A DNA stretch of 59,605 nt from a virus (lineage: Duplodnaviria; Caudoviricetes), in the IMG/VR virus record IMGVR_UViG_3300044615_000612, positions 1 through 59,605 of that record, one strand, 5' to 3'. A program made the position numbers and the translations under genes. This document shows, piece after piece, positions 8,560 through 59,487 of the stretch (position 1 is its first letter; the number at the start of each line of letters is the position of its first letter). The notes beneath the pieces were generated by a model, which saw only the letters and a list, made by a program, of their open reading frames with translations, had not been told where the DNA came from and did not search any database.

Positions 8560-9037
8560 CGGCTATCCCCCGCAGGGCCTTGACCAGGGCCGATCGCTTC
8601 TCAGGGGCAAGCGCCACATTCTCTAGGCCGATGGCGTTCACCAGCGTGTCGTTGATGGCCACATCCAGGCCGACGTACTTGCCCTTCAGGTCGGTCTTGT
8701 CAAACGCCAGGTCCAGGCTGGCAGAGTGAATGTCCCTGAACTTCCCAACGGTGGTGACGTACTTGTCGTCTCTCTCCACCACGTCAGCCAGCGCCCGGTA
8801 GAACTGGTACACCATCTCCCGGTCGGACTTGCTCGCAGGCCGCATGGCCACTGCAACGGGTGGCATCTGCTTCGGAGCGGCTGCGGGCCGGAACACCAAC
8901 AGGAGGGCGGCGATCACTCCGATGGCGGCGCCGTGCTTCACCATCGCACGCATGTCCTGCTTCTGAAGCAGCGGCCAGAGGTACACCAGGGCCACAATGC
9001 CGGCCGCGACAACGGCTGCGATCTGCTGCAACGTCAT
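8546..9037 (-). CDS. Membrane-anchored protein (2 TM plus helical domain)
   Basis: Two N-terminal hydrophobic segments; ATGA overlap. Confidence 0.75.
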   Translation of the reverse strand: MTLQQIAAVVAAGIVALVYLWPLLQKQDMRAMVKHGAAIGVIAALLLVFRPAAAPKQMPPVAVAMRPASKSDREMVYQFYRALADVVERDDKYVTTVGKFRDIHSASLDLAFDKTDLKGKYVGLDVAINDTLVNAIGLENVALAPEKRSALVKALRGIADAAR

Positions 9038-9921
9038 AGGATCACCTTGCACTTTCCGTCCAGGATGGCAGCGGGATTGATGAGGCCCCAGCCGAAGTCG
9101 TTGTCATGTCCAGGCTGGCCCCTGTCCATGGAGGTTTGCGCCAGGATCTTCCCGGCATGGCGGGCTACATGCTCCTTGCCGCATTCACACACAGCCAGGG
9201 CCAGTACCCCAGCCACAAATGGCGCAGCCATGGAAGTGCCAGATAGAGTCGCATACCCGCCTCCAACCCAGCAGCTGGTGATGTGTTCCCCAGGTGCGGC
9301 AACGTCGATCTCTTTGCCACGGCAGGAGAACTCACACACGTTGCCATCCCGGTCAACTGCGCCTACCCCTATCGTATTGGTATAGGCTGCCGGATACGAA
9401 ACTTTCCCGCCGTCATTTCCGGCGGCGCAGACCAGGGCTACGCCGGCCCTGTACGCCTTCTCACACGTGAGCGCCAGCCGCTCAGAGGTAACAGGCGATC
9501 CCAGTGACAGGACAGCAATGCAACAGCCGGCCTCCACCGCATACTCCAGGGCTCGGACCACCGCATCCATGGAGCCGAAGCCTGAGTTGTTCAGCACCTT
9601 GCAGGAGATCACATCGACCTGAGGCGCCACACCCTTCATGCCGTGACGGGCGGCAATGATCCCTGCCACGTGCGTGCCGTGCCCGTTGGTGTCATACGGG
9701 CTCTCGTCCCGGGTGAAGTTTCTGTGTTCCTTCACCGCCCCAGCAAGGCCGGGATGGCCGGGCTCCACGCCCGTGTCGATCACTGCCACCCGCACCCCTG
9801 CCCCCTGGTGCTTGGTCCAGAGGGCAGGGATGCCATACGCGGAGATACCCCAGTCGCATTCCCCGGACGTGAGAGAATGGGCGACGGCCTCAACGCGGTA
9901 GGGTGGCAGGTGGACCAGCAT
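9034..9921 (-). CDS. Subtilisin-like serine peptidase (S8)
   Basis: VAVIDTG, NGHGTHVAG, AAGNDG, SGTSMAAP. Confidence 0.95.
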   Translation of the reverse strand: MLVHLPPYRVEAVAHSLTSGECDWGISAYGIPALWTKHQGAGVRVAVIDTGVEPGHPGLAGAVKEHRNFTRDESPYDTNGHGTHVAGIIAARHGMKGVAPQVDVISCKVLNNSGFGSMDAVVRALEYAVEAGCCIAVLSLGSPVTSERLALTCEKAYRAGVALVCAAGNDGGKVSYPAAYTNTIGVGAVDRDGNVCEFSCRGKEIDVAAPGEHITSCWVGGGYATLSGTSMAAPFVAGVLALAVCECGKEHVARHAGKILAQTSMDRGQPGHDNDFGWGLINPAAILDGKCKVIL

Positions 9922-10262
9922 CACCTGCTCCGGATCAGCTGAATCAACGCTGAGACGATTGGCACCACCACGCTGACCAGCACCGGGATGGGGATCCCGG
10001 CCGCAGCCTGGGCCGTGACCATGATCTGGTCCCCCTCTTCCTCACTGATCGCCTGAGCGGTAAACAGAGGGAACGTGTCGATCACGGGCAGGAGCGCCTT
10101 CGCCACGGCGTAGACGATCTCCAACCGCTCGGCCAGGGTCGTTACTTCAGACCACTGGGCGACGATCGCGGACAGCTCCTTCAGCACACCGACGTGGCTC
10201 AATAACCACTTGACGATCAGGAACTTGTCAACCACTTTGATCACCCCCTTTCCTACGTTCAC
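9921..10262 (-). CDS. Hydrophobic/membrane protein (start may be 10235)
   Basis: C-terminal TM IPIPVLVSVVVPIVSALIQLI. Confidence 0.65.
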   Translation of the reverse strand: MNVGKGVIKVVDKFLIVKWLLSHVGVLKELSAIVAQWSEVTTLAERLEIVYAVAKALLPVIDTFPLFTAQAISEEEGDQIMVTAQAAAGIPIPVLVSVVVPIVSALIQLIRSR

Positions 10263-24194: not shown

Positions 24195-25274
24195 TCACTT
24201 CCCCATCAGAATGCGTAACTCGGATTTCGTAATAGGCTTCTGCCCGCGGACGACCTCCAGTGCCCGCTGCGGATCTACTCCGGCAGCGTGCAGCTTGTCC
24301 CACCTGGCCTGGTCTTCGTTGGTCAGCTTGAGGCCGGTCTGATTGCGTGCGCCGCGGGGGATGTCCGGCAGGTTCTGCTTCCACTTGTACTGCCCTTCTG
24401 GACCGTCGGCGTAGTACTTGACCTCGGCGTCCGAAGCTTCTTGGATTGGGCCAAACGATTGCGCACGCATCTGCGCTACCATGTCGTCATCTGAGAACGC
24501 CGGCATCTCTTCTTCTGGCACGTCAATCTCAGGTGAGGCAAAGTCCAGCTTCTGCAATGGATCGGTCAGCATCCCGTCCATCATGGTGTAGCCACGCTCG
24601 CCAACAGAGGCGGGCTGGCTGTAAACGCTGCCGTCGTCTTCCGCCGGTACAGTCAACGGAATGTCCCGGACAGTGTCTGGCATGAAGTCGCCAGGAGTGT
24701 CGGCCTGATCAAGCGCGACAGCAGCACCAAGTCCAGCTGCGGCTGCGCCCAGACCGCCCATGGTCGCATTAAGGCCAACCTTGAAGGCCGCGTCATTGGC
24801 CATGTCGGCCTGGCCGCTGGCGATCCGGGCCTGACGGGCGGCTTCGATGTTCTGCTGGGCGATGTCGAACAGCTGCTGACGCTCGCCGCCGTAACGCTCG
24901 GCATTGACGCGGTCCAGCGTCCGCATGCGTTCGTTGCGACGAAGCATGTCCATCACGTCTTCGCCGCCCATGCCGGGATCCACGGCGCGGTTGTAGTCGG
25001 CTGCGTCTAGCATCCGCTGGACGGTGGGGCCAAAGAGCCCTGGATCGGCCTCACCGAACTGGCGACCCGTTGGGATTGGGAGTTCGATGTCCCGGAGTGG
25101 CTCCGGCTCCGGGCGGCCGAAGTGCCGGGCCAGCTTGACCTCCTCGGCGGCGCGTGCAGCGGCCATCACCGACGGGTCATTGGGCAGCTGGCGGAAGAAC
25201 CGCGCCATCTCCGGCGGTGTCCCCATCAGCTGGCGCACTTTGGCGACAGGGTCTCTGAGAAATGGATTGCCCAT
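24195..25274 (-). CDS. Putative internal virion protein with central Gly/Ala TM-like segment
   Basis: GGLGAAAAGLGAAVAL; gene position. Confidence 0.6.
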   Translation of the reverse strand: MGNPFLRDPVAKVRQLMGTPPEMARFFRQLPNDPSVMAAARAAEEVKLARHFGRPEPEPLRDIELPIPTGRQFGEADPGLFGPTVQRMLDAADYNRAVDPGMGGEDVMDMLRRNERMRTLDRVNAERYGGERQQLFDIAQQNIEAARQARIASGQADMANDAAFKVGLNATMGGLGAAAAGLGAAVALDQADTPGDFMPDTVRDIPLTVPAEDDGSVYSQPASVGERGYTMMDGMLTDPLQKLDFASPEIDVPEEEMPAFSDDDMVAQMRAQSFGPIQEASDAEVKYYADGPEGQYKWKQNLPDIPRGARNQTGLKLTNEDQARWDKLHAAGVDPQRALEVVRGQKPITKSELRILMGK

Positions 25275-44680: not shown

Positions 44681-46957
44681 CTACCGCTTGCGGCGAGTGG
44701 GCGGACCCCAGGTGTTGTTGTTGGACGGCGACCTATATGCCCCGCCTATCCTCGCCCCACCTGTTGCCACTGGGTCGGTGTACGGATCGTACAGACGCTG
44801 CCCCGTCACCGGATCTCGTCGCTCTCCTGGCCGTGTAGTGTCGCTGCCGATTACTCCTGTTCCCCGCGGATCGGTGTACCCATCGTAGATGCGGAACCCG
44901 CCAGACTCTCGCCAGCCTGGGCCGCTGGAGCCTGGAGAAGCCCGGAGCGGCTTGGGCGTGTCATCGTCTTCAGTTTTTGACGTGCCACGCTTCGTCCCAG
45001 AAGTGCGTGTCGGAATTGGCGATGCCCGGCCAGGTGCAAACGTCTCCCGGACGGCGCCCTCCTCGTCTAGTTCGATAAGCCCCTGGCTGCGCAGGAACTC
45101 TATTGTGGAGGGCTGGTCTGTTGGGGCCGCACGCTCGGCCAGCTTCTTCTGGTCGAACAGTGACCGCAGCTCGGCATCTGAGTACGCACGCGGACCGCGG
45201 GGGCCGACGGTGTCATAGCTAGGAATCTTTCTCATCGGCTCTGGTCCTAGCCGCTCTATGGCCCTGTTGAAGGCATCCACGTAGCCGGCGCCTCCACGCA
45301 TGTCCTGGGCCATCATCTGCATAAGCGATTGTTCTCTTGCGGCTTTGGCTGCGTCACTGGCATTGCCTTCTGTTAGGTGCCGCCAGGAATTGGCGAAGTT
45401 AGCCCGGTCCTCCGGACTAGCGTTCGCGATGTACTGCCGGAACTCCTGGTCATCCTGCGCAGTCATTTGCTGGCCCGGAGGGATCGGTTGCGCTGCACCG
45501 GGACGTGGCAGGCCGGGGCCGCCGGAGCCCGGAACAGGCAGCCACCCCTCGGACCTGCTACCCTCGTTCACCTTTTGCCACTTCATCCCCTCCGGCAGCG
45601 GCTGAGTCGGGTTGTTTTGCCACGGCAGGCTGTAGTTGACTCCAGGGATCGGCTGGGCAGCCCCTGGAGTTTGCATTCCAGCACCGCCTAGCCCACGCTC
45701 ATTTAGGTACTGCCGCTGTAGTGCTTGCTCCCGGAGACGCTCGCCTTCCGGACCACGGTAGTCGGCGGTGATCCTTATTGTTTGCCGCCACTGCTGATAT
45801 CCGGGGTCTTGCGATAGATCGACTTGGGAGAGTTGCTGGCTTGGAGGGATAGGCTGTGCTGCGCCTGGAGGTGGTAGGCCGGGTCCTGGCTGGTCCCTGT
45901 CGTCAATCATGTCGCCGTCTCGGTCACGGAAATCCTGTGTTCGCATCGAACCAGGAGGTGCGTTAATTGACCCGCCGTAGCCTGGGGCAAATGAGCTGGG
46001 CTGACCTCTTTCGGCCAGTTTGCCACCAAGCTGGTAAACTCCGTTTGGCCCGCCCTGGCCCGGCTGTTGGGCCGCCAATCTTGCTAGGTTTTCTTGCTCG
46101 GCGGCGCCCTCCGGAGTATTGCGCAGCCACCACTCGTAATGTAGCTGTTCGTCTCTTCGGAGTTCGTCGGCTTTTACAGTTAGTTGCTGTTTATCTTGCG
46201 GTGTAACGTAAACTGTTCGCTGTGACAGCGAGCCCTCATTCAATACATGCGGAACGAGCCCCCGGGCGGGTTTGTCTGACATGGCGGGCGTCCCGGCAGG
46301 GCGATAGCCTTCTGGCATTACAGGAGAGAAGGCCGTTGGCGGGTGCATCGGCGGAGACGCAGGCTGCTGCGGGCTTCGGAAAGCGGGCCAGTACTCCCCG
46401 TTTGGGCCAATTGGGAGGTCGGTCAACGGCTGACCGTATGGCAGGCCAGTGCCGGGGTTGATTGGACGCTGCACAGAAAACGCCGGCTGTGTCGCGTACA
46501 TCGGCGGCGCCGACTGCTGCCCTAGTTGGGAGAGAAGCTGGTCCTGGAACCCTTGTGGCGGAGTGAATCCGTACTGGCCGAACATGCCCATCAGAGCATC
46601 CACGTTGCCAGTGGCAAACGGATTGCCTTGATAGCGACCTTCCTTGATGTTGTCGGCGGCCTGGCCCCATGTCGCCCCAAGTTCAACTGGCTCCGGACGC
46701 CGGCCACCCATGACGCCCTGGTTGTACTGGGCCTGGTTCTGGAGGAACTGCTGGACGAATGCGTCCTGCTGGTTCTGGTACGCCTGAAGGCTTGGCATGG
46801 AGCCGAACGGCGTCTGTACGCCCTGCTGCCTCTGAAACGCGCTCATGTTCAGCGGCGCGGATTGCGGTTGCGCGTCATAGCCGGGCGTGTTTGGACGCTC
46901 GCCCTTGCGGGACGTGAAACCCATGAATGGGTTGGACTGATTGCTACGTGTATCCAT
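44681..46957 (-). CDS. Long Q/P/G-rich, largely disordered putative virion protein
   Basis: AGGAG SD; repeated GAAQPIP; DRDGDMIDDRD. Confidence 0.7.
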   Translation of the reverse strand: MDTRSNQSNPFMGFTSRKGERPNTPGYDAQPQSAPLNMSAFQRQQGVQTPFGSMPSLQAYQNQQDAFVQQFLQNQAQYNQGVMGGRRPEPVELGATWGQAADNIKEGRYQGNPFATGNVDALMGMFGQYGFTPPQGFQDQLLSQLGQQSAPPMYATQPAFSVQRPINPGTGLPYGQPLTDLPIGPNGEYWPAFRSPQQPASPPMHPPTAFSPVMPEGYRPAGTPAMSDKPARGLVPHVLNEGSLSQRTVYVTPQDKQQLTVKADELRRDEQLHYEWWLRNTPEGAAEQENLARLAAQQPGQGGPNGVYQLGGKLAERGQPSSFAPGYGGSINAPPGSMRTQDFRDRDGDMIDDRDQPGPGLPPPGAAQPIPPSQQLSQVDLSQDPGYQQWRQTIRITADYRGPEGERLREQALQRQYLNERGLGGAGMQTPGAAQPIPGVNYSLPWQNNPTQPLPEGMKWQKVNEGSRSEGWLPVPGSGGPGLPRPGAAQPIPPGQQMTAQDDQEFRQYIANASPEDRANFANSWRHLTEGNASDAAKAAREQSLMQMMAQDMRGGAGYVDAFNRAIERLGPEPMRKIPSYDTVGPRGPRAYSDAELRSLFDQKKLAERAAPTDQPSTIEFLRSQGLIELDEEGAVRETFAPGRASPIPTRTSGTKRGTSKTEDDDTPKPLRASPGSSGPGWRESGGFRIYDGYTDPRGTGVIGSDTTRPGERRDPVTGQRLYDPYTDPVATGGARIGGAYRSPSNNNTWGPPTRRKR

Positions 46958-46965
46958 GACCACTC

Positions 46966-48072
46966 CTACCGTGCGTAGATCGGCTGCGGTGCGACGCCAA
47001 TACCACCGCCGCCCCAACCGATAATGCGTTTTGATCCGTCAGGGTTGTAGTTGCGATGCCAACTTTGGGCCTGCATCGCATTGGGCCCCCAGAAGTCTGC
47101 AAACGTCACGCCGCCTGGGAACGGGTTGTATCCCGGTTGGTTTTGCGGAAGGCTGGCCAATCGCTGACGCTCTGCTTCGGCCGACGAATCGATTTGCTGC
47201 ATGCGTTGGCTGAATTGTGACCGCATATTATCTGGTAGTGCAGAAGACACTGACTGCCTAGCAGATGCCGCATCTGATGCGTAGCCGTTCATAACCAACC
47301 GATCAGCTGCTGATTGGGCCACGTCCATCAGGTTCTCGCCAGGCCCGGCTCGTCGCAGCATGTTCCTGGCTGTATTCCCAGCCCAGTCACGCTGCTGAGA
47401 TCCGGCTGGCGTACTTGCCCACTGCTGGGCTGCGGCATCTACGCGCTGCTGGTAGCCACTGTCGCCCGTCGATGACTGATACGGAGTCCCCGCGCTGGCG
47501 GGAGGAATTAGCTGGGCCCGTCCCATGGTCGGCATCGGACCGCCGGTCTGCGGCCCCATGACGCTGTCATATGTGGGGAACGGGCCGCCCGTCGGAGGGT
47601 TGACATAGTTGCTGGAACCCTGGCCGCTCATCCAGTCGTCATAGGTTGGGAATGGACCGCCGGTCTGAGGCTGGGATGGTGGAGTAGATGGCTGCGTCAC
47701 GCCAGGAGAAGTTGGCGTCGGTCCGCCGGTTTGTGGCTGGCCTCGCATCCAATCGTCATAGGTTGGTATTTGGCCGCCCTGCTGCGATGACGTACCGCCA
47801 CCGGAAGACTGAATTGGCTGGGCCTGACCCATGGTCGGCATTGGTCCGCCGGTCTGAGGCTGGCCACCGTAGGCAGGCATGCTCGCCGGCTGCGGGCGTG
47901 GAGTGGCTGGCCGGCTGCTGGGGGCCGGCTGCGACTGCTGGTTGTAGATGTTGAACGTCGGTGCCTGCTTGGCCTGGCGCACCTGATTGCCGTAGGGGTC
48001 CATCTGCCCCTGGGCCCGCAGTTGATTCTGGCGACCACGTGATCCAAAACCGGCATGCCCAAACGCGCTCAT
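46966..48072 (-). CDS. Q/P/G-rich repeat protein
   Basis: Repeated QTGGPxPT and PTYDDWM. Confidence 0.7.
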   Translation of the reverse strand: MSAFGHAGFGSRGRQNQLRAQGQMDPYGNQVRQAKQAPTFNIYNQQSQPAPSSRPATPRPQPASMPAYGGQPQTGGPMPTMGQAQPIQSSGGGTSSQQGGQIPTYDDWMRGQPQTGGPTPTSPGVTQPSTPPSQPQTGGPFPTYDDWMSGQGSSNYVNPPTGGPFPTYDSVMGPQTGGPMPTMGRAQLIPPASAGTPYQSSTGDSGYQQRVDAAAQQWASTPAGSQQRDWAGNTARNMLRRAGPGENLMDVAQSAADRLVMNGYASDAASARQSVSSALPDNMRSQFSQRMQQIDSSAEAERQRLASLPQNQPGYNPFPGGVTFADFWGPNAMQAQSWHRNYNPDGSKRIIGWGGGGIGVAPQPIYAR

Positions 48073-48221
48073 CGCTCGCCCTGCTTGTTGGTCATGGAAT
48101 CAGTGCCCACGCCATACCCATGGAGCATCCTGAGCCGCTCGGCATCCATCTGGGGCTCCGCCTGTCGCACCTCATTGATGAGCTGCCGGAGGTAGTCCAG
48201 GTTGGGTATGGCTGCGTCCAT
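48069..48221 (-). CDS. 50-aa hypothetical protein (not in the ORF track)
   Basis: Hand translation MDAAIPNLDYLRQLINEVRQAEP...; ATGA-coupled to the next gene. Confidence 0.55.
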   Translation of the reverse strand: MDAAIPNLDYLRQLINEVRQAEPQMDAERLRMLHGYGVGTDSMTNKQGER

Positions 48222-48903: not shown

Positions 48904-50016
48904 TCAGGCGTAGTTCTTGAACTTGATGAACGACCTGGGCGACTTGAACTTCATGTTGCCCAGCGTGGAGACACAGTAGCGATACGATTGGGTGACCTCG
49001 TCGTAGAACGGCCCCTCGCTGTTATACATCTGCGACTCCATGTTCAGGAGTTCGATGTTGCCGATGGCGAGGCCGTATCCGGTGTCCGCCGGGACCGCGT
49101 ACTCCGTGCCCACTTCCACGCCGTCGATTTCGACGGTGTTGAAGCCGAACGACCGCAGGCCGTTCTCGCGGGAGACGATGACGCGCTCCTTGGAGTCCTG
49201 CTTGTTGAGGAAGTCGATGTAGAGCTTCCGGTCCAGGACCACCAGATCGATGGCGTCTTCCTTGGTGTCGTTCCGCTTGGCGTAATGCAAGCCGGCCCGG
49301 ATCGCCTTCACACAGTTCTCCGCCCAGGTGGCAGAGCTGCCGCCCCAGAACGTGGACGTGTAGTTCACCAGGATGGGCGAGTAGAAATCGTACTCGCTGT
49401 CCGCCTTGCCGCCCGGCCACGTGCCGGTCAGCTGCGAGCCGCCGTAGTAACCCAGCTGGGTGTTGAGCCCGGCGTAGGTATCCGACGGGTAGGCAAACGG
49501 GTCCGCAGCATTGGCCGAACGCTGGGTGCCATCGGTCACGTGGAGCGTGCCGTTGTTGCCGAAGAACGACTCCAGGCCGTGATACCGAAGCTCGTTGCCG
49601 CTGGCATTGCCGTCATTCCAGACCTCCTGCGAGAGGTACTGTTCGATGGAGGTGAGGAGACGGCTGGCCATCTTGCCGGCCACGTTGACCAGGGCGCTGG
49701 TGCCTCGGTTCTCCAGAAGCTCCTTGCGGTAGATCATGTCCGTGGCCTGATAGCCCCGGTACTCAAGCTCCGCTTTCTTCCACAAATTCTGGCGGCTGAA
49801 GGAGCGAGGAGTCTCGCCGTTGTTGCCCTGCGGCTGATGCAGCCTATAGGACACCTCCCAGTCGAAACCCCTTCCGGCCATGTTCATCCGGATGTTGCCG
49901 CGACTTTCGATGGCAGCGAACACCATGTACTTGCGGAGGGAGGCAATCTCCTCCTCACGCAGGTGGTTGACGATCGTCGTTGCAATCGACCGGGCGAAAT
50001 CAGTGGACGAAGGCAT
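48904..50016 (-). CDS. Major capsid protein
   Basis: 370 aa after scaffold; WNDG...GL, GFNTVEIDG motifs; strong codon bias. Confidence 0.85.
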   Translation of the reverse strand: MPSSTDFARSIATTIVNHLREEEIASLRKYMVFAAIESRGNIRMNMAGRGFDWEVSYRLHQPQGNNGETPRSFSRQNLWKKAELEYRGYQATDMIYRKELLENRGTSALVNVAGKMASRLLTSIEQYLSQEVWNDGNASGNELRYHGLESFFGNNGTLHVTDGTQRSANAADPFAYPSDTYAGLNTQLGYYGGSQLTGTWPGGKADSEYDFYSPILVNYTSTFWGGSSATWAENCVKAIRAGLHYAKRNDTKEDAIDLVVLDRKLYIDFLNKQDSKERVIVSRENGLRSFGFNTVEIDGVEVGTEYAVPADTGYGLAIGNIELLNMESQMYNSEGPFYDEVTQSYRYCVSTLGNMKFKSPRSFIKFKNYA

Positions 50017-50030
50017 CGCTTAGTAACTCC

Positions 50031-51053
50031 CTAGATGGACCCGTCTTTGACCAGCTGCGCCCGTAGACGCTCCTCAAAGCTCATCTTCGACTGCGGAACC
50101 CGCGGCTCCGTAGCCCCGCCGCTCCTGCTCGGCGCGCGTGTCGCACGCTGTCGCAGGAACTGCATGTTCGATTGGGCCTGCGGCTCCACCGGAGGCGGCT
50201 CCGGCTGGGGCGGAGGCGCCTGCGGCGTGGCGAACATCTGCTGCACCTGCTGATAGCGGAGATTCAGCAGATCACGCTCCAGCATGCTGGTTGCGTACTG
50301 CCATCTCCCTTCAGCCGTGGCGATGCCCGCCTGCGCGGCCTGTGCGATGTAGCCCCGGATGGCCTGACCCTCTGGGGTCACCTGTCCGTTGCCGTCGTAC
50401 AGCCAGTCGGAGTTCTGCTGCTCCAACGACTGCACGTAGTTTTGTGCGGTGTATTGACCCAGCTGCTGCTGAACCAGCTCCTGGGCCTTCTGCTGGGCGA
50501 TCGATTCGATGAAGGGCTTCAGGGTCCCTTCAGGATCGGTGACGAACTTCTTGGCGAAGTTGGCCGTGTACGCCTGGTACGCCCTGATCTGAGCCTGGGC
50601 GTCGATCGGTGCATCCTGGGCGATGACCTCGCGGCCGGTCTCAGGATCCCGGACGATGTACTGACGCCATTCGTCCTTCACCTGCGGAGGGTCCCACCAC
50701 TTGGGCTGGGCGGGAGCCTGCTGCTGGGTGGCCTTCTGCTGGGCCTGCCACTGCCGGTACTGCTCGGCGTTCTGCATGTACTCCAGGGTCGCCGGCATCA
50801 TGGACTGATACTGGCGGAGCTGGCCCTGGGCGTCGCGGTAGCCCTGCATCGACTGATACAGGGTGCGAGCGATCGTTACGTCATCGGCTCCGTTGAACTC
50901 CGGCAGCTGCTTGAAAGCGTCATAGACGCTCCCGGCCGGCTGGGCCGATGCTTGCGTGGGCTGCGAGTTGTCAAAGGACTGCTGCGGTGCCGCACTCTGC
51001 GGCGCCGACTCCGGAGCTTGCGACTCCGGCGACGGCATTGCGTCGTCGCTCAT
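50031..51053 (-). CDS. Capsid scaffolding protein
   Basis: Disordered acidic N-terminus, helical Q-rich body, C-terminal helix MSFEERLRAQL; upstream of MCP. Confidence 0.75.
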   Translation of the reverse strand: MSDDAMPSPESQAPESAPQSAAPQQSFDNSQPTQASAQPAGSVYDAFKQLPEFNGADDVTIARTLYQSMQGYRDAQGQLRQYQSMMPATLEYMQNAEQYRQWQAQQKATQQQAPAQPKWWDPPQVKDEWRQYIVRDPETGREVIAQDAPIDAQAQIRAYQAYTANFAKKFVTDPEGTLKPFIESIAQQKAQELVQQQLGQYTAQNYVQSLEQQNSDWLYDGNGQVTPEGQAIRGYIAQAAQAGIATAEGRWQYATSMLERDLLNLRYQQVQQMFATPQAPPPQPEPPPVEPQAQSNMQFLRQRATRAPSRSGGATEPRVPQSKMSFEERLRAQLVKDGSI

Positions 51054-51128: not shown

Positions 51129-52067
51129 CTATGGCGACGTGTACTGCCGCAGCAGCTCGGAGGTGATCGCCTGTTTTTGCCGCTGTTGAGCGCCGTCCGG
51201 GGCGAGCATGCTGCCCGCTGCGAACGGGGCTACAAACGCTGCGCCACCGCCAACGTCTTCGGCAAAAGCCCGTGGCAACTGCCGGATTGCCTTGCCGGCG
51301 TAAGGCACAAACGGATCCGTGGCCGTACCCAGGACGAGCCCGCCAAGGACGTGCGTCCATGGTGAGGCATCAGGGAACGCCCGTTGCAGCAAGTCCGTTT
51401 CGTCTACGGTCGTCAGCTCTGGTGGAGGCCGATAGTCTTCGCGGCTCACGTCGTAGAGGGGCCGTGCACGCTCCGCGGCAAGGTAGTCGTCGTAAGCCCG
51501 CAAATGCGCTGGCCGGCGGCCGACATAAGCCGTGAGTGGGTAAGTCAGGCCATCCACTGCGTTGGAGAATTGCGCAGCCGCTTCTGGGCTTTGGGCAGGC
51601 TCGCCCATGGCGGTAAGGACCTGATCGGTTGCCATCTGGCCAGCGCTCATCAGTGCCTGGAAAGGAGCCATGACAGCACCCGTGCGTGACGCACCGGACC
51701 ATGGCGGAGCCATGCCTGCGGAAAATGTGTCGGACCGGAGCTGGGACGTGTCCATCCCAGACCACCCCAGGCGGCCCTTCACGTCCTGCCTGAGATCGGT
51801 TGGAACTCCCCGGAGGGCCTCTTCAACTCCGTCGATGATGTTGGCACGCCGCTGGTCACGCTGCCACATCCCTTGTGGCTTGACGTACTGGGGCGACCAA
51901 GAGTTCAGGAAGTCGGTGCGGTACGGATACTGCTCGGCTATCGCAGCCGCCGTTGGGCGAGGATGCTCCGGCAATGAGGCATTGGCGGCCTCGTCCCGCA
52001 GCTCGCGGATGCGGGCTGCAATCCGCATCGCCTCTTGCAGGACCATTCCATCACGGCCCGGCTCCAT
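51129..52067 (-). CDS. Putative internal virion protein
   Basis: GGLVLGTATDPF hydrophobic segment; TGATG coupling. Confidence 0.65.
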   Translation of the reverse strand: MEPGRDGMVLQEAMRIAARIRELRDEAANASLPEHPRPTAAAIAEQYPYRTDFLNSWSPQYVKPQGMWQRDQRRANIIDGVEEALRGVPTDLRQDVKGRLGWSGMDTSQLRSDTFSAGMAPPWSGASRTGAVMAPFQALMSAGQMATDQVLTAMGEPAQSPEAAAQFSNAVDGLTYPLTAYVGRRPAHLRAYDDYLAAERARPLYDVSREDYRPPPELTTVDETDLLQRAFPDASPWTHVLGGLVLGTATDPFVPYAGKAIRQLPRAFAEDVGGGAAFVAPFAAGSMLAPDGAQQRQKQAITSELLRQYTSP

Positions 52068-52531
52068 CAGCCCACCTGCCTGGCAGTGCCAGTGAGATCA
52101 ATCAGCAACGGACTCATGGGAGAGGAGAGTTCCTGAGCCTGGCGGGCCATGCGGACTCGCTCCAGCATGGACTGAGCCCGGATCTGTTCGATGTCCTTCT
52201 CATGCTCCATGCGACGAATCTCCCGGAGCTGGGAGACGCGGGACTTCATCTCGTCACCGATGGCGTCGTTTACGTCGTCCGCGGCCTTGGCCAGGACGCC
52301 TGCCTGAACGTCAGGTGTAATGACAGGGACAGGAAGACCGACCTGCGGAATGTTGAACGCGGCGCGGGGTCTCGCCTGCTGGTTGGCCTGGTTGTTGGCT
52401 GGGCGACGTTGCTGACCCACGGGAGCCAAGGGATTGGCCGGGATCTCGTCCCGCTTTTCCTTGGGCTGATCGCCAAACTGCTCGGCAAAGCCTCTGCGGA
52501 TCGACTCCTCCAGAATCGCATTCAGGTCCAT
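52067..52531 (-). CDS. Hypothetical coiled-coil protein
   Basis: TAATG coupling. Confidence 0.65.
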   Translation of the reverse strand: MDLNAILEESIRRGFAEQFGDQPKEKRDEIPANPLAPVGQQRRPANNQANQQARPRAAFNIPQVGLPVPVITPDVQAGVLAKAADDVNDAIGDEMKSRVSQLREIRRMEHEKDIEQIRAQSMLERVRMARQAQELSSPMSPLLIDLTGTARQVG

Positions 52532-52938
52532 TAGGTCTTCCTCTTGGCCTTCCAGCAGGCCATGCGTACCAGGGCACGTCCGGCAGTGCGGATGAACGGC
52601 AGGCCACGCTTCTTGGCCGTCTCCTCCATCACGTCCACTATCTCTTCAATGTGCTTCACGGCCTCGTCTGGACCCCATTCGTCCATCTGGCGGGCCATCT
52701 TGTTGCACTTGCAGGTAGGGGAGGCGTGGATCCCCATGGTGGACAACATGGCCTTCAGCTCTGTGCCTGGCCCGGGGTGGGGTGCGTACTTGGCCCGTAT
52801 CCTCTGGAAGTGATGCTCCGGCATCTCCAAGTGGGTGTCGGAGACCTTGGTGGCAAAACGCAAGACCTCTTCCGTGTACCCGGGCTTACGGGAGGTGGCG
52901 GCCTGTTCCAGCTTGGCTATGGATATGAGGTGCTTCAT
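52531..52938 (-). CDS. GPGTELK...CxC...MDxWG-type protein, partner of the Cys-rich protein
   Basis: GPGTELKAML...TCKCNKMARQMDEWG; ATGA overlap. Confidence 0.72.
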   Translation of the reverse strand: MKHLISIAKLEQAATSRKPGYTEEVLRFATKVSDTHLEMPEHHFQRIRAKYAPHPGPGTELKAMLSTMGIHASPTCKCNKMARQMDEWGPDEAVKHIEEIVDVMEETAKKRGLPFIRTAGRALVRMACWKAKRKT

Positions 52939-53609
52939 GGCGGATCGTCTGCTGATTCGCAACAGGCACCAGGGCACAGGAACGGATTCAAAGCTCTACC
53001 GCTGCCAACGCAACAGTAGTAATCCGAAGTGCCTTCCGGAGAGCCAGCGTAGGCTCGCCCAGGGGGGCATACGTTTGCGCCGCCTGGCTCAAAAGGGAAC
53101 AGTTCGACACCACCGGGGTCCTGGCACAGGTCATTTACGCAACAGCGACAGGGTCCGCAGTCTGCGTCTGTCGCGCATGACTCTGGACACTCGCCGCACA
53201 CGCCATCGTTACAGCACTGACCCTCTGGGCAGTCCTCGTCGGACTCGCACTCGCACGGCACGCACTCCTCGTCTACGCAGCATTCGCCCTCTGGGCAGCA
53301 CACACCGGCACAGCAGGTCTCGCCAGGGTCGCAGCAGACTGCCCCAACATCACCTGGACAACAGGTCTGATCGTTGTTGCAGCACACGCCCTGGCCGTCG
53401 TTGCAGCAGTACTGGGCCTCGGTGCAGCAGACCTCTGACTCACCAACCCCTATTTCATAGACAGTGCAGCACTCCCTGGGATTCTCACAGCAGACCTGGG
53501 ACTCTCCTGTGCCGCAGCACACGTCCGGGTCCTTGCAGCACACCTTGTTGCCGTCAGGGCCGCAGCACTCGCCATCCAGCTTGACGCAGCAGCAGGTGCA
53601 GCAGGGCAT
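52935..53609 (-). CDS. Extremely Cys-rich acidic protein (CC-doublet repeats)
   Basis: About 51 of 224 residues are Cys; coupled on both sides. Confidence 0.8.
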   Translation of the reverse strand: MPCCTCCCVKLDGECCGPDGNKVCCKDPDVCCGTGESQVCCENPRECCTVYEIGVGESEVCCTEAQYCCNDGQGVCCNNDQTCCPGDVGAVCCDPGETCCAGVCCPEGECCVDEECVPCECESDEDCPEGQCCNDGVCGECPESCATDADCGPCRCCVNDLCQDPGGVELFPFEPGGANVCPPGRAYAGSPEGTSDYYCCVGSGRALNPFLCPGACCESADDPP

Positions 53610-53878
53610 TACCAGCTCCAGTTGCAGGACCAGTAGCCGGCCGTGAGCTTGTCGGTCTTCTCGTCACAGTTGTGACGGGCTTTGAAGTTGGCCCTGCGGC
53701 CTTCATCTCCATGACCGCCACCGGAGCCGTCCCGGTAATGGCCCATGGAGGCATCGCCAAACCGGACGATCCGCTCCTCGTCGCCCACCTTGGCGCGGAC
53801 GACGAACTTCTTGCCACCCTGCGTGTCACGCACGGGACGGTTGGGGATCAGCCGGCGGATGTTGTCTTCACTTGCCAC
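53609..53878 (-). CDS. Conserved small basic viral protein (VRFG...RRxxFxARH.C...YWS type)
   Basis: KKFVV...IVRFGD...RRANFKARHNC...AGYWSC; GTG start. Confidence 0.78.
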   Translation of the reverse strand: MASEDNIRRLIPNRPVRDTQGGKKFVVRAKVGDEERIVRFGDASMGHYRDGSGGGHGDEGRRANFKARHNCDEKTDKLTAGYWSCNWSW

Positions 53879-54020
53879 TGAGCTTGTTCCACTGCTTCTG
53901 GTCCGGATAGCCCTTGTCACCCGGCTTGGCCGGAGCTTCACCACGCTCACGCTTGGCGTGGATGTTGGCCCACAGACCAGGCCGCAGCTTGCGGATCTTG
54001 TCTCCGTTTGGGTCACTCAT
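53868..54020 (-). CDS. 50-aa PGLWANIHAKR-type phage protein (not in the ORF track)
   Basis: Hand translation MSDPNGDKIRKLRPGLWANIHAKRERGEAPAKPGDKGYP... Confidence 0.78.
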   Translation of the reverse strand: MSDPNGDKIRKLRPGLWANIHAKRERGEAPAKPGDKGYPDQKQWNKLSGK

Positions 54021-55014
54021 CGTTCACCTGCGGAGCCAGTAAAAACGGCAGAGACATAAACATGTTCCGCCTGTATCGGTACTCTGGGTCCAAGGCAGAC
54101 AAACCGCTGTGCCGGACCGACGGCAGCGGACTGTCAGCGCTGCTTCCAAAATACGCAACACTACGCGGCGACTCGTCACCAACCAGGATCCCCTGGTATC
54201 CCATCTGTTTCATTTCTGGAATCAAGCTGGCCGCCTCGTTCCACTGACCGTACATGGGATGCGATTCTTCTAATCTGTCGTAAGGATACGCCGATCCTCC
54301 GCGTTCTATCGCCCTGTAACGGACGGCCGGCAGCCGATACCACGCTTCGTCGCTGGCATCCTTACCAGGCAGCTCAACACCCGTCCTTTGAGATGATGCT
54401 AACCCATTGTCTCTGTCGGCTATGAAAGCGTGCCATTGATATTTATTGTCCGATCCGCCCAGGCGGTGCAGTCTTCCCAGGAGTTCGTCCACGTCCATAG
54501 GACGCGGAGCCCGGTCCAGGCCGGCGACATGGCGTGCGCCCCATAGCGGGTAAACGGCGTATGGGTTTTGCGCCGCGTTTTGAGCCATGTCCGGCGTGAA
54601 CGACGTGTACACAAGTCCGTTGCGCGATCTCCCTAGAACAGAAGCCTTCCCAGGGTCGTCCCAGCGGTACATCGTCTGGCCAGGCATAAACCCCAAGGCG
54701 TAGGCTCGCTGTTCACGCCCGGACGGTGACATGTCCAGCTGTCCAGAACGGACGCGGTCAATCACGTCCGCTGTCACGTCATGGGCAGCAAGAAAATCTA
54801 GATACTCCTGCGTTACCCCTTCTTCTGCCACGGATCTGGCAAGCTCATCCATGCCAGTCTGATAACTGCTGCTGTTGACTCGCCTTGCCTCCGGATTCAT
54901 GCCGGTGACCGAAAGTGCGTCTAGGACTTTGTGCCTGGTCACAGGCGGCAATGACCTGGCGCGCGCCCCTGCAACTGGCAGTAGCCGTCTGATGGAAGCG
55001 GCGAAGTCAGCCAT
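54013..55014 (-). CDS. ART-PolyVal-like ADP-ribosyltransferase
   Basis: REQRAYALGF...MYR...VYTSFTP...VYPLW...MGYQGILVGDE...SALDP follows the ART-PolyVal motif order; candidate R-S-E triad. Confidence 0.62.
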   Translation of the reverse strand: MADFAASIRRLLPVAGARARSLPPVTRHKVLDALSVTGMNPEARRVNSSSYQTGMDELARSVAEEGVTQEYLDFLAAHDVTADVIDRVRSGQLDMSPSGREQRAYALGFMPGQTMYRWDDPGKASVLGRSRNGLVYTSFTPDMAQNAAQNPYAVYPLWGARHVAGLDRAPRPMDVDELLGRLHRLGGSDNKYQWHAFIADRDNGLASSQRTGVELPGKDASDEAWYRLPAVRYRAIERGGSAYPYDRLEESHPMYGQWNEAASLIPEMKQMGYQGILVGDESPRSVAYFGSSADSPLPSVRHSGLSALDPEYRYRRNMFMSLPFLLAPQVNDE

Positions 55015-55039
55015 TGCACCCTACGCCATCTGAGGCCGG

Positions 55040-55093
55040 TCACTCATCGTCTTCATCCGGCCAGAAAAGGAACCAGTAGATGTCTTCGCCCAT
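55040..55093 (-). CDS. 17-aa micropeptide MGEDIYWFLFWPDEDDE
   Basis: ATG immediately follows the upstream TAA. Confidence 0.35.
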   Translation of the reverse strand: MGEDIYWFLFWPDEDDE

Positions 55094-55723
55094 TTACTCA
55101 GTGTCCTGAGACAGGGCATCCAACCACCAAGGCGACGTTGCCAATCCGGTAGCGAGCCCAACACGCATGGGCGTGCGTGGGTCGTCGGCAACTCGCTGGA
55201 CACCATGCAGCAAGCCGGCTATCCGCGCCGCAGCGTCCTTGCCCTGGTCTGCGTAGGACCTCTGGTAGGCGTCCCACGGCACATCAGCAAACGGCCTGCT
55301 ACCGCCGGCCATGCGGGCGACCATCTCATCCGCCACCAAGCCAAGGCCAGGAACGCGGTCCAGAGCCGCCACCGCACGTGACTGCCAGGGCATGCCGTCA
55401 ACGCCCAACATGGCGGCGCGGTTGTAGCCATGCATCACCTCATGGCGACGCACATTCCTGTCACCAACCGGATACACCACCGCACCGATGGTTCCTTTGT
55501 CCTGATAGATTTCAGGACTGTGAACGAAGAGCCCTTCCCAGCCGTCCGCCTTCAGAGCATCCTCGGCGTACTGGACCAGAGGGTCTGCGCCGCTCTGCAC
55601 GGGATGGGCCATCGGCTCTAGGGCCCGGTACTTGAGTTCGCCAGCGTCCAGGGACCTGTACGGCAGGTCCACCATCGCACGGCGGGCGGCCAAGAGCTTC
55701 CGGATGCGGGAGGCTGGGTCCAT
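55094..55723 (-). CDS. Zincin-like metallopeptidase
   Basis: RRHEVMHG (HExxH) and downstream ADEMVAR. Confidence 0.65.
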   Translation of the reverse strand: MDPASRIRKLLAARRAMVDLPYRSLDAGELKYRALEPMAHPVQSGADPLVQYAEDALKADGWEGLFVHSPEIYQDKGTIGAVVYPVGDRNVRRHEVMHGYNRAAMLGVDGMPWQSRAVAALDRVPGLGLVADEMVARMAGGSRPFADVPWDAYQRSYADQGKDAAARIAGLLHGVQRVADDPRTPMRVGLATGLATSPWWLDALSQDTE

Positions 55724-55737
55724 GCGGACTAATGCCC

Positions 55738-55909
55738 AACCACGCCGAACCGGGGGCCGAAAACCTGCTGGGAGCGAGGACGGGGGCAATAGGCACCCCC
55801 ACCTATACAAGCAAGAAGTTGAAAATCGATTTAGGGGCATCCCCACCCCTACAAGCTTCCAATTTAAATTCGGCTAGGGGCCGGCAAACGGGAACCACGC
55901 CGAACCGGG
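55738..55909. repeat. 17-bp direct repeat AACCACGCCGAACCGGG, two copies
   Basis: Exact copies at 55738-55754 and 55893-55909. Confidence 0.8.
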
Positions 55910-58936: not shown

Positions 58937-59155
58937 ATGTACGACGTGCTATCCCCTGACGGTTTTTCTATAACGCCTGACGAGGTCTACCCGGATCTGG
59001 AATCGGCCCATGCTGCGGCGGTGGCATTTGCCGAGCGGTTTCAGTTTCAGGGCTTCTACAGCACTGCTAGGCGGGAGCGTATCCCGCTGACTGACATTGC
59101 GGGCAGGTGCCGCATTGTTGAGGTACCGGACGACTACTTGGAGGAGGATGAGTGA
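58937..59155 (+). CDS. Conserved small phage protein (VLSPDGF...QGYYS type)
   Basis: AGGAGG SD; MYDVLSPDGFSI. Confidence 0.75.
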   Translation: MYDVLSPDGFSITPDEVYPDLESAHAAAVAFAERFQFQGFYSTARRERIPLTDIAGRCRIVEVPDDYLEEDE

Positions 59156-59487
59156 TGAGTCACACACCAGGACCGTGGCACTACCACTACGCCACTGCGG
59201 TTGGCGAGGAAAGCGAGGACGGCGACTACAACGCAGCATTCGGAATCACCAGCCGCAGCAAGGAAGAGTTCCAGGCAGACGGCAACCGCGGTGATCTGGT
59301 GGCCTATGTGCCATGGGACTGTGATCACATTGCCAATGCCCGCCTCATCGCCGCTGCGCCGGAGATGCTGGCTGCCCTGCGGGAACTTGTCCACTATGAC
59401 GAAGGCAGTAGTGAGCAGGGGTCTTACGGATACGAAGTTCTGAGTCGATGCAAGGCAGTCATCGCCAAAGCAGAAGGGAGGGAGTGA
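59155..59487 (+). CDS. TPGPW...ANARLIAAAPE-family protein
   Basis: Both motifs present; TGATG coupling. Confidence 0.8.
   Translation: MSHTPGPWHYHYATAVGEESEDGDYNAAFGITSRSKEEFQADGNRGDLVAYVPWDCDHIANARLIAAAPEMLAALRELVHYDEGSSEQGSYGYEVLSRCKAVIAKAEGRE

Follow-up and report, generated by a model that had tools for sequence, protein, structure and literature searches.

Why should four neighboring and otherwise unrelated phage genes encode proteins that begin alike? The question is raised by IMGVR_UViG_3300044615_000612, the record of an uncultured virus, complete at 59.6 kb (CheckV 100%) and analyzed here over its whole stretch of 59,605 nt ("the window"). Four genes in a row on the minus strand, which open a block running into the scaffold and capsid genes, carry the tetrapeptide IR[RK]L within the first dozen codons. 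A sequence-only reading of this DNA had taken the shared start for a tag by which a swappable set of effector enzymes is loaded into the phage head. Comparison with related viruses suggests that the motif, in the more general form I-R-x-L, is best explained as a portable terminal docking peptide on fast-changing accessory proteins at the head of the head-morphogenesis operon; to its being a head-loading signal in particular we assign a probability of roughly 0.55.

The first of the four genes (55094..55723, minus strand) encodes a 209-aa zincin-like protein with an HExxH motif, beginning MDPASRIRKLL, with IRKL at residues 7-10 within an N-terminal helix. It is followed by a gene for a 333-aa protein of unassigned fold (54013..55014, minus strand; N-terminus MADFAASIRRLL, IRRL at residues 8-11, C-terminal tail LLAPQVNDE); by p50 (53868..54020, minus strand; N-terminus MSDPNGDKIRKLR), in which an IRKL leader at residues 9-12 precedes a basic LWANIHAKR module; and by p89 (53609..53878, minus strand), which has a GTG start, reads (M)ASEDNIRRLI with IRRL at residues 7-10, and continues into a VRFG...ARHNC module. 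The position of the motif depends on the start codons. Those of p50 and the 333-aa gene are fixed by in-frame stops, a TGA two codons and a TAG three codons before the respective ATG. The GTG of p89, which overlaps the end of p50, is supported by two related loci (L005 at 4145 and L011 at 3876) where the corresponding GTG or ATG comes right after a stop codon, and the start of the HExxH gene is based on a codon model and a terminator-like hairpin at 55851-55832. Across the 83 proteins predicted in the window (18,508 aa) there are four copies of IR[RK]L where composition predicts 0.41 overall and 0.026 at positions 2-15, and all four begin at residues 7-9 of adjacent genes (7, 8, 9, and 7 in order). 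The common start is thus real, but the window alone is suggestive only by way of motif position and gene adjacency; the decisive evidence comes from relatives.

Related loci were collected from IMG/VR by their major capsid protein (MCP), giving 24 at 68-99% identity, and a profile of the HExxH family added three more of the same clade, for 27. Together with the window these encode 525 proteins, clustered without their first 14-20 residues into 157 families. Of these, 14 have strict IRxL at residues 5-15, and 13 of the 14 belong to a variable island situated ahead of the scaffold and capsid genes; arithmetic from the window-set frequencies leads one to expect about one occurrence. The 14 include one stray member of a 114-aa family and a conserved family, p50b, whose gene comes just after the capsid gene; the 333-aa family escaped the count because the gene caller chose a later start. 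The relatives' tagged genes occupy the same place as those of the window, ahead of a Cys-rich gene and the scaffold gene, and their leaders are variations on a theme: MA[ST]EDNIRRL in a 74-aa family, M.PE[ED]RIR[MQ]L in the 114-aa family, (M)ASEDNIRRL in proteins with a DUF6321 domain, MAGVSDIRRL in a 346-aa protein, MDDYGNKIRSL in a 115-aa protein, NKIRRLLG in a 295-aa protein, DADFIRQLI in a 305-aa protein, and IRAL in two ART-PolyVal-like proteins. The proposal that the motif is enriched over the composition background and conserved in relatives is borne out by these figures. A DNA-pattern scan turned up one further tagged family, in a 143-aa open reading frame (ORF) of IMG/VR contig L089, beginning MTAEDNIRNLV... 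and with an H..HGS..G..EH pattern resembling an HD-type hydrolase.

Position within the protein is equally telling. The clade contains 86 copies of IR[RKQASM]L, of which 49 lie in the first 16 residues, a segment making up 6.9% of all residues, and 28 in the last 55 residues (22.8%); the middle of the proteins, with 70.3% of residues, has only nine. Several of the C-terminal copies are the final residues of the protein, and C-terminal use, which the sequence-only reading had not mentioned, extends to 13 families. Four complete relatives were also compared (G001, G003, G004, and G005). In the first three, IRxL at residues 7-11 is confined to island genes (four, three, and three, respectively), the other N-terminal matches being one at residue 15 and an early family in which the motif starts at residue 2 (MIR). 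There is also a second flavor of leader, AGRxIAxLLG, found on metagenomic and clade members of the HExxH, 333-aa, and 470-514-aa families, which are mutually unrelated; metagenomic homologues of the HExxH and 333-aa proteins both have N-termini of the AGRxIAGLLG type. Larger tagged proteins often carry this variant, which retains the I-x-x-L pattern. Chance was considered as the origin of the pattern and is rejected on the strength of the window counts, the complete relatives, the family census, and the terminal bias.

Is it then the peptide that is conserved, or the DNA encoding it? Across leaders the I, R, and L are constant while x varies among R, K, Q, M, S, and A, with acidic or polar residues usually preceding the motif; the codons differ synonymously (ATC or ATT; CGC, CGG, AGA, or CGA; CTC, CTG, CTA, or TTG). 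A constant peptide with varying codons, its use at C-termini, and the existence of a second flavor together argue for a docking motif at the peptide level, rather than a translation signal or a mere recombination scar. A general signal for translation of late genes was rejected in any case, since the N-termini of the MCP and the scaffold-like protein do not have the motif.

The DNA does have a story of its own. One related locus, L002, has an MCP 99% identical to that of the window and matches it in three blocks, 55754-55713 (97.6%), 53997-53849 (97.3%), and 53612-50001 (95.5%), with unrelated cassettes between them. The first of these (55713..55754, minus strand, 42 nt) covers the ribosome-binding region and opening codons (MDPA) of the gene that comes first in the island, beyond which the window has the HExxH gene and L002 an ART-PolyVal-like gene. 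The second (53849..53997, minus strand, 149 nt) extends from the IRKL of p50 to the IRRL of the next gene, and its downstream side is unrelated: p89 and the DUF6321 gene of L002 are identical through IRRL and then diverge. The mosaic breakpoints therefore coincide with the leaders, and this could be read to mean that the shared 5' sequence is nothing but a recombination linker left by cassette exchange. Blocks ending exactly at the leaders are what such a linker would give, but it would not keep I, R, and L constant through four Arg and four Leu codons, would not place the motif at the C-terminus in 13 families, and would not preserve I-x-x-L in the AGRxIAxLLG flavor on other families; we consider it quite improbable as a full account. 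As the leader DNA is shared, it also offers a patch of homology, and probably guides cassette exchange in addition to encoding the peptide. The locus is hypervariable: neither the HExxH gene nor the 333-aa gene has a homologue in the first 24 related loci, L002 included, although relatives of the HExxH protein were found by the later profile scan in the three further loci of the clade.

What do the leaders precede? In most cases, small basic modules: p50, p89, and the DUF6321 proteins have predicted isoelectric points of 9.4-10.1 (10.1 for p50, 9.4 for p89). The p50 core matches six PHROG families (E 3e-10 to 7.5e-4) and is present in nine of the first 24 related loci; p89 belongs to phrog_7595 (E 1.3e-15) and is present in five. 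An assignment of p89 to DUF5754 (PF19058) was discarded, its 17.4 bits falling under the gathering cut-off of 27.4. DUF6321 (PF19846) is found in tagged 88-91-aa proteins of the relatives and not in the window; the match in L002:2704-2976 reaches 81 bits, where the cut-off is 28.5, and begins at residue 21, past the leader.

Outside the clade, the LWANIHAKR, phrog_7595, and DUF6321 modules occur without the tag. Untagged homologues were found in P-HM1, HTVC008M, Manatee Spring podovirus, P-SCSP1o, and HTVC115P, in agreement with the suggestion that homologues of the PGLWANIHAKR and VRFG/ARHNC families in unrelated phages would not have the leader, and that in these two small families the motif has been appended ahead of the core. 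Manatee Spring podovirus was at one point a candidate relative, p89 being matched there over its full length, yet the phage is unrelated and its protein untagged. The modules are also embedded in larger phage proteins, as PHROG coordinates indicate and as is seen in P-HM1 (436 aa), HTVC008M (134 aa), and P-SSM4 (461 aa). Their surroundings elsewhere are structural: in P-SCSP1o, a T7-like cyanopodovirus of Prochlorococcus, the order is portal, scaffold, MCP, DUF6321, LYANIHAKR module, tail tube, and in HTVC115P DUF6321 follows the capsid gene. These untagged DUF6321 and LYANIHAKR genes are annotated as hypothetical (L049, from P-SCSP1o, 2501-2919; L048, from HTVC115P, 2513-2764). DUF6321 was detected in 525 phage records, and no mention of it was found in the limited literature collection searched; nor was any virion proteomics of cyanopodoviruses found there that covers the small modules, the available portion of PMC9860041 containing no mass spectrometry. 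At the DNA level, the only match of the window to the phage collection is a 77-nt stretch of the LWANIHAKR core, in cyanomyoviruses. The expectation of a swappable set of effector enzymes is thus half confirmed: the set is swappable, with turnover of the island and breakpoints at the leaders, but it consists mostly of small basic modules rather than enzymes.

The two larger tagged proteins of the window are more enzyme-like, at least in part. The HExxH protein has 35 homologues, and H94, E95, H98, D132, and E133 are invariant in the 36 sequences. Its AlphaFold2 (AF2) model has a mean predicted local distance difference test score (pLDDT) of 84.8 and places HExxH within a helix at residues 89-105, so that the hallmarks of a zincin, HExxH on a helix and a downstream acidic or His third ligand, are present. 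None of the 36 members matches Pfam, the family profile has no match among PDB sequences, and Foldseek gave none for the model at E <= 0.001. A wide VIA-align search returned weak fold matches (Z <= 4.5), among them whole-model alignments to zincin peptidases at Z 3.2-4.1.

The 333-aa protein has 12 homologues, with N-termini reading IRRL, IRSL, IAGL, or VRRL. It had been labeled "ART-like", for which little was found: none of the 12 family members matches Pfam, hhalign comparison with the relatives' ART-PolyVal-like family gives a probability of 0.3%, and the AF2 model is poor (pLDDT 56.7), the fold search matching the helical N-terminal part alone (Z <= 6.5, uninformative). Its nearest Atlas clusters do carry ART-PolyVal (PF18760; score 0.88), some fused to MuF, and the label is kept as a lead only. 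Island proteins of the relatives match ART-PolyVal below threshold (E about 5e-6) and also phrog_873, of the head and packaging category. Unrelated large island proteins share a C-terminal tail as well, a hydrophobic GLLAP.A.. followed by two or three acidic residues, which is present at window positions 54013-54050 and 55094-55130 and in L005:2503-3354, L046:6065-7609, and L011:1459-2499; it may be a second docking element.

Downstream of the tagged genes lie those to whose products the peptide might bind. Besides a P22/SU10-like portal and a tail fiber carrying Mtd_N and S74 domains, the phage encodes a scaffold-like protein and a capsid protein of phrog_9953; the clade is of podovirus type. 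The MCP (48904..50016, minus strand, 370 aa; phrog_9953 major head protein, E 1.1e-9) and the scaffold-like protein directly before it (50031..51053, minus strand, 340 aa) are both candidate receptors. The latter is kept in all of the first 24 related loci (incomplete at the locus edge in three), and against Pfam and PHROG it gave no family beyond a chance match to Mei4. Profiles of both against PDB sequences gave chance matches or none, leaving the MCP with no solved relative by sequence, and a tblastn search with the MCP had no match in 50,697 phage records, among which the clade has no cultured relative. By eye, the MCP N-arm (DFARSIATTIV) is loosely and weakly like the AGRAIAGLL leader, as R-x-I-A-x-x-hydrophobic; if this is real, leaders could mimic the capsid N-arm.

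Looser versions of the motif had been pointed out near the N-termini of other late proteins, and here the outcome is divided. The copy in p50b (48069..48221, minus strand, 50 aa, downstream of the capsid gene), NLDY-LRQL-I at residues 8-15, is conserved: p50b is present in 22 of the first 24 related loci and in all four complete relatives, and [YF][LI]RxLI is kept in every relative seen. The p50b of L047 has a 10-residue match to the leader of an island protein, and it is possible that p50b is a core member of the tagged set. The N-terminal copies at 52531 (p154) and 52067 (p312) are not conserved in relatives, and the protein at 25274 (AK-VRQL) has no homologue by BLAST. The head-module protein p312 (51129..52067, minus strand) does have a conserved IRQL 48 residues from its C-terminus, kept at about that distance in four of five members of its own family and all seven of a sister family.

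Three other observations concern the surroundings. Between the tagged and the head genes is a Cys-rich acidic protein (52935-53609, minus strand, 224 aa, isoelectric point 4.1) with runs of CC and no Pfam or PHROG match; its counterpart in L018:3445-5961 is an 838-aa open frame. After the capsid genes come two long low-complexity proteins rich in Gln, Pro, and Gly (368 and about 760 aa; 44681-48072, minus strand) for which no family was found. Both ends of the record (48-236 and 418-774 versus 59152-59487) carry paralogous or repeated genes (HTPGPW..., ...VPWDCDHIANARLIAAAPEMLAALRELV), reflecting either terminal redundancy or a gene family.

If the motif acts in head loading, the IRxL peptide would bind one common component of the assembling procapsid, whether scaffold, inner capsid face, or portal, and the tagged proteins, small basic modules and a few enzyme-like ones, would be enclosed in the procapsid and later exit with the DNA. 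Several points weigh against this. The clade is uncultured, and the evidence for encapsidation is indirect. When the window is scanned by itself for three-residue patterns of any kind near the N-terminus (first 16 residues), IR[RK]L is not significant, the null maximum count being four to five. The loci share kinship and their copy counts are not independent, which makes the family counts the fairer measure. Strict motifs are found in only two of nine YHGSPH-family and two of five 346-aa-family members. The complete relative G005 has the same scaffold and MCP and no tagged island genes at all, which means that the tag system is dispensable for head assembly. No prohead protease or conserved cleavage motif was found among the window proteins scanned (39 against Pfam, 14 against PHROGs); no residue is conserved after the motif, and family cores start one to four residues past it. 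A route like that of T4, in which the tag is clipped after loading, is thus not supported. Finally, while the idea of a leader separate from the fold holds for the small families, where it is appended to the core, it does not for the window's HExxH protein: its IRKL aligns with the family core helix ([IL]RAMLAARR) and is confidently modeled as a helix (residues 3-15, pLDDT 88-93), so that in this model it is part of the fold. In most HExxH relatives the core helix is preceded by a distinct leader and a Pro-rich linker.

Terminal bias and conservation of the peptide indicate a docking motif; they do not indicate its partner, and the link to the capsid is itself inferred. A genuine docking motif could conceivably have its partner outside the capsid: a shared chaperone or regulator, a host protein targeted by all these accessory proteins, or a phage protease. 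The phage does encode a subtilase, full-length (Peptidase_S8, E 2.7e-51) and adjoining a membrane-protein-like gene (9034-9924, minus strand), and the HExxH protein is a second candidate. The placement of the tagged genes within the head-morphogenesis operon, immediately ahead of scaffold and MCP, and the occurrence of the same modules within structural modules of other podoviruses argue for a head component instead, and no conserved cleavage site was seen past the motif. A partner outside the capsid is accordingly unlikely, though far from negligible. Degrons, too, are typically at protein termini, and the motif might be a signal for degradation or timing that holds down the level of potentially harmful accessory proteins inside the cell producing the phage. 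This seems very improbable: the tagged proteins are mostly small basic modules, not enzymes, and protecting the host when they are co-transcribed with late head genes would presumably be of no obvious benefit. Within the head-loading explanation, a more specific possibility is loading in the manner of encapsulins, by a hydrophobic-basic peptide of four to six residues, at either end and never clipped, docking directly on the inner face or N-arm region of the HK97-fold MCP or on the scaffold at the site bound by the capsid N-arm; in so particular a form it is decidedly unlikely.

Docking peptides of this kind are known, the closest being the capsid-targeting sequence of T4, whose internal proteins are described as sharing only that sequence, which directs them into the scaffolding core (PMC3012670). 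Here as there (IPI-III, Alt), a short N-terminal peptide is the only common part of diverse, fast-evolving proteins, in this case from 14 families, the proteins being basic, with an enzyme class among them. The likeness drawn is one of organization, and there are differences: this is a podovirus with a P22/SU10-like portal, IRxL is also used at C-termini, there are two leader flavors, and the same scans disclosed neither prohead protease nor clipping site. In phage P1, the first 30 residues of DarB are reported to suffice for targeting a reporter to the capsid (PMC9024508), a role like the one proposed here for a short N-terminal segment; the P1 Dar proteins are described in the same paper as having no common consensus, whereas here a single motif is common to 14 families. 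Encapsulin cargo is described as carrying terminal peptides of 10-20 residues that dock inside an HK97-fold shell, on the N-helix and P-domain of its inner face (PMC11664910); again a short terminal peptide is found on unrelated proteins, although Family 1 peptides are almost always C-terminal and these are mostly N-terminal. Polyvalent-protein domains encoded near packaging genes have likewise been proposed to be packaged in the head and injected (PMC5512222). The ART-PolyVal-like proteins of the relatives, the zincin-like peptidase, and the small modules near packaging genes resemble the polyvalent or MuF-fused effectors of Iyer et al. (2017), except that the polyvalent domains are joined covalently, to one another or to MuF or portal, while here every protein has its own gene and its own short tag. 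In the limited collection of literature searched, no description was found of the motif, of the clade, or of use at both ends without a protease, and these appear to be what is new.

Should the head-loading explanation be correct, capsid-targeting peptides would be a recurrent solution and not a peculiarity of T4 and P1, and head loading would be workable without a protease and at either end of a protein. The LWANIHAKR, DUF6321, and phrog_7595 modules, hypothetical in hundreds of cyanophage and pelagiphage genomes, would gain a function as packaged cargo, and a tag of 4-10 residues that loads foreign proteins into a simple shell of scaffold and capsid would be a useful tool. If loading were also encapsulin-like, phages would have their own equivalent of encapsulin cargo loading, which would tie phage capsids and encapsulins together directly in function, and the small basic modules of aquatic phages would then be a general form of DNA-associated cargo inside the capsid.

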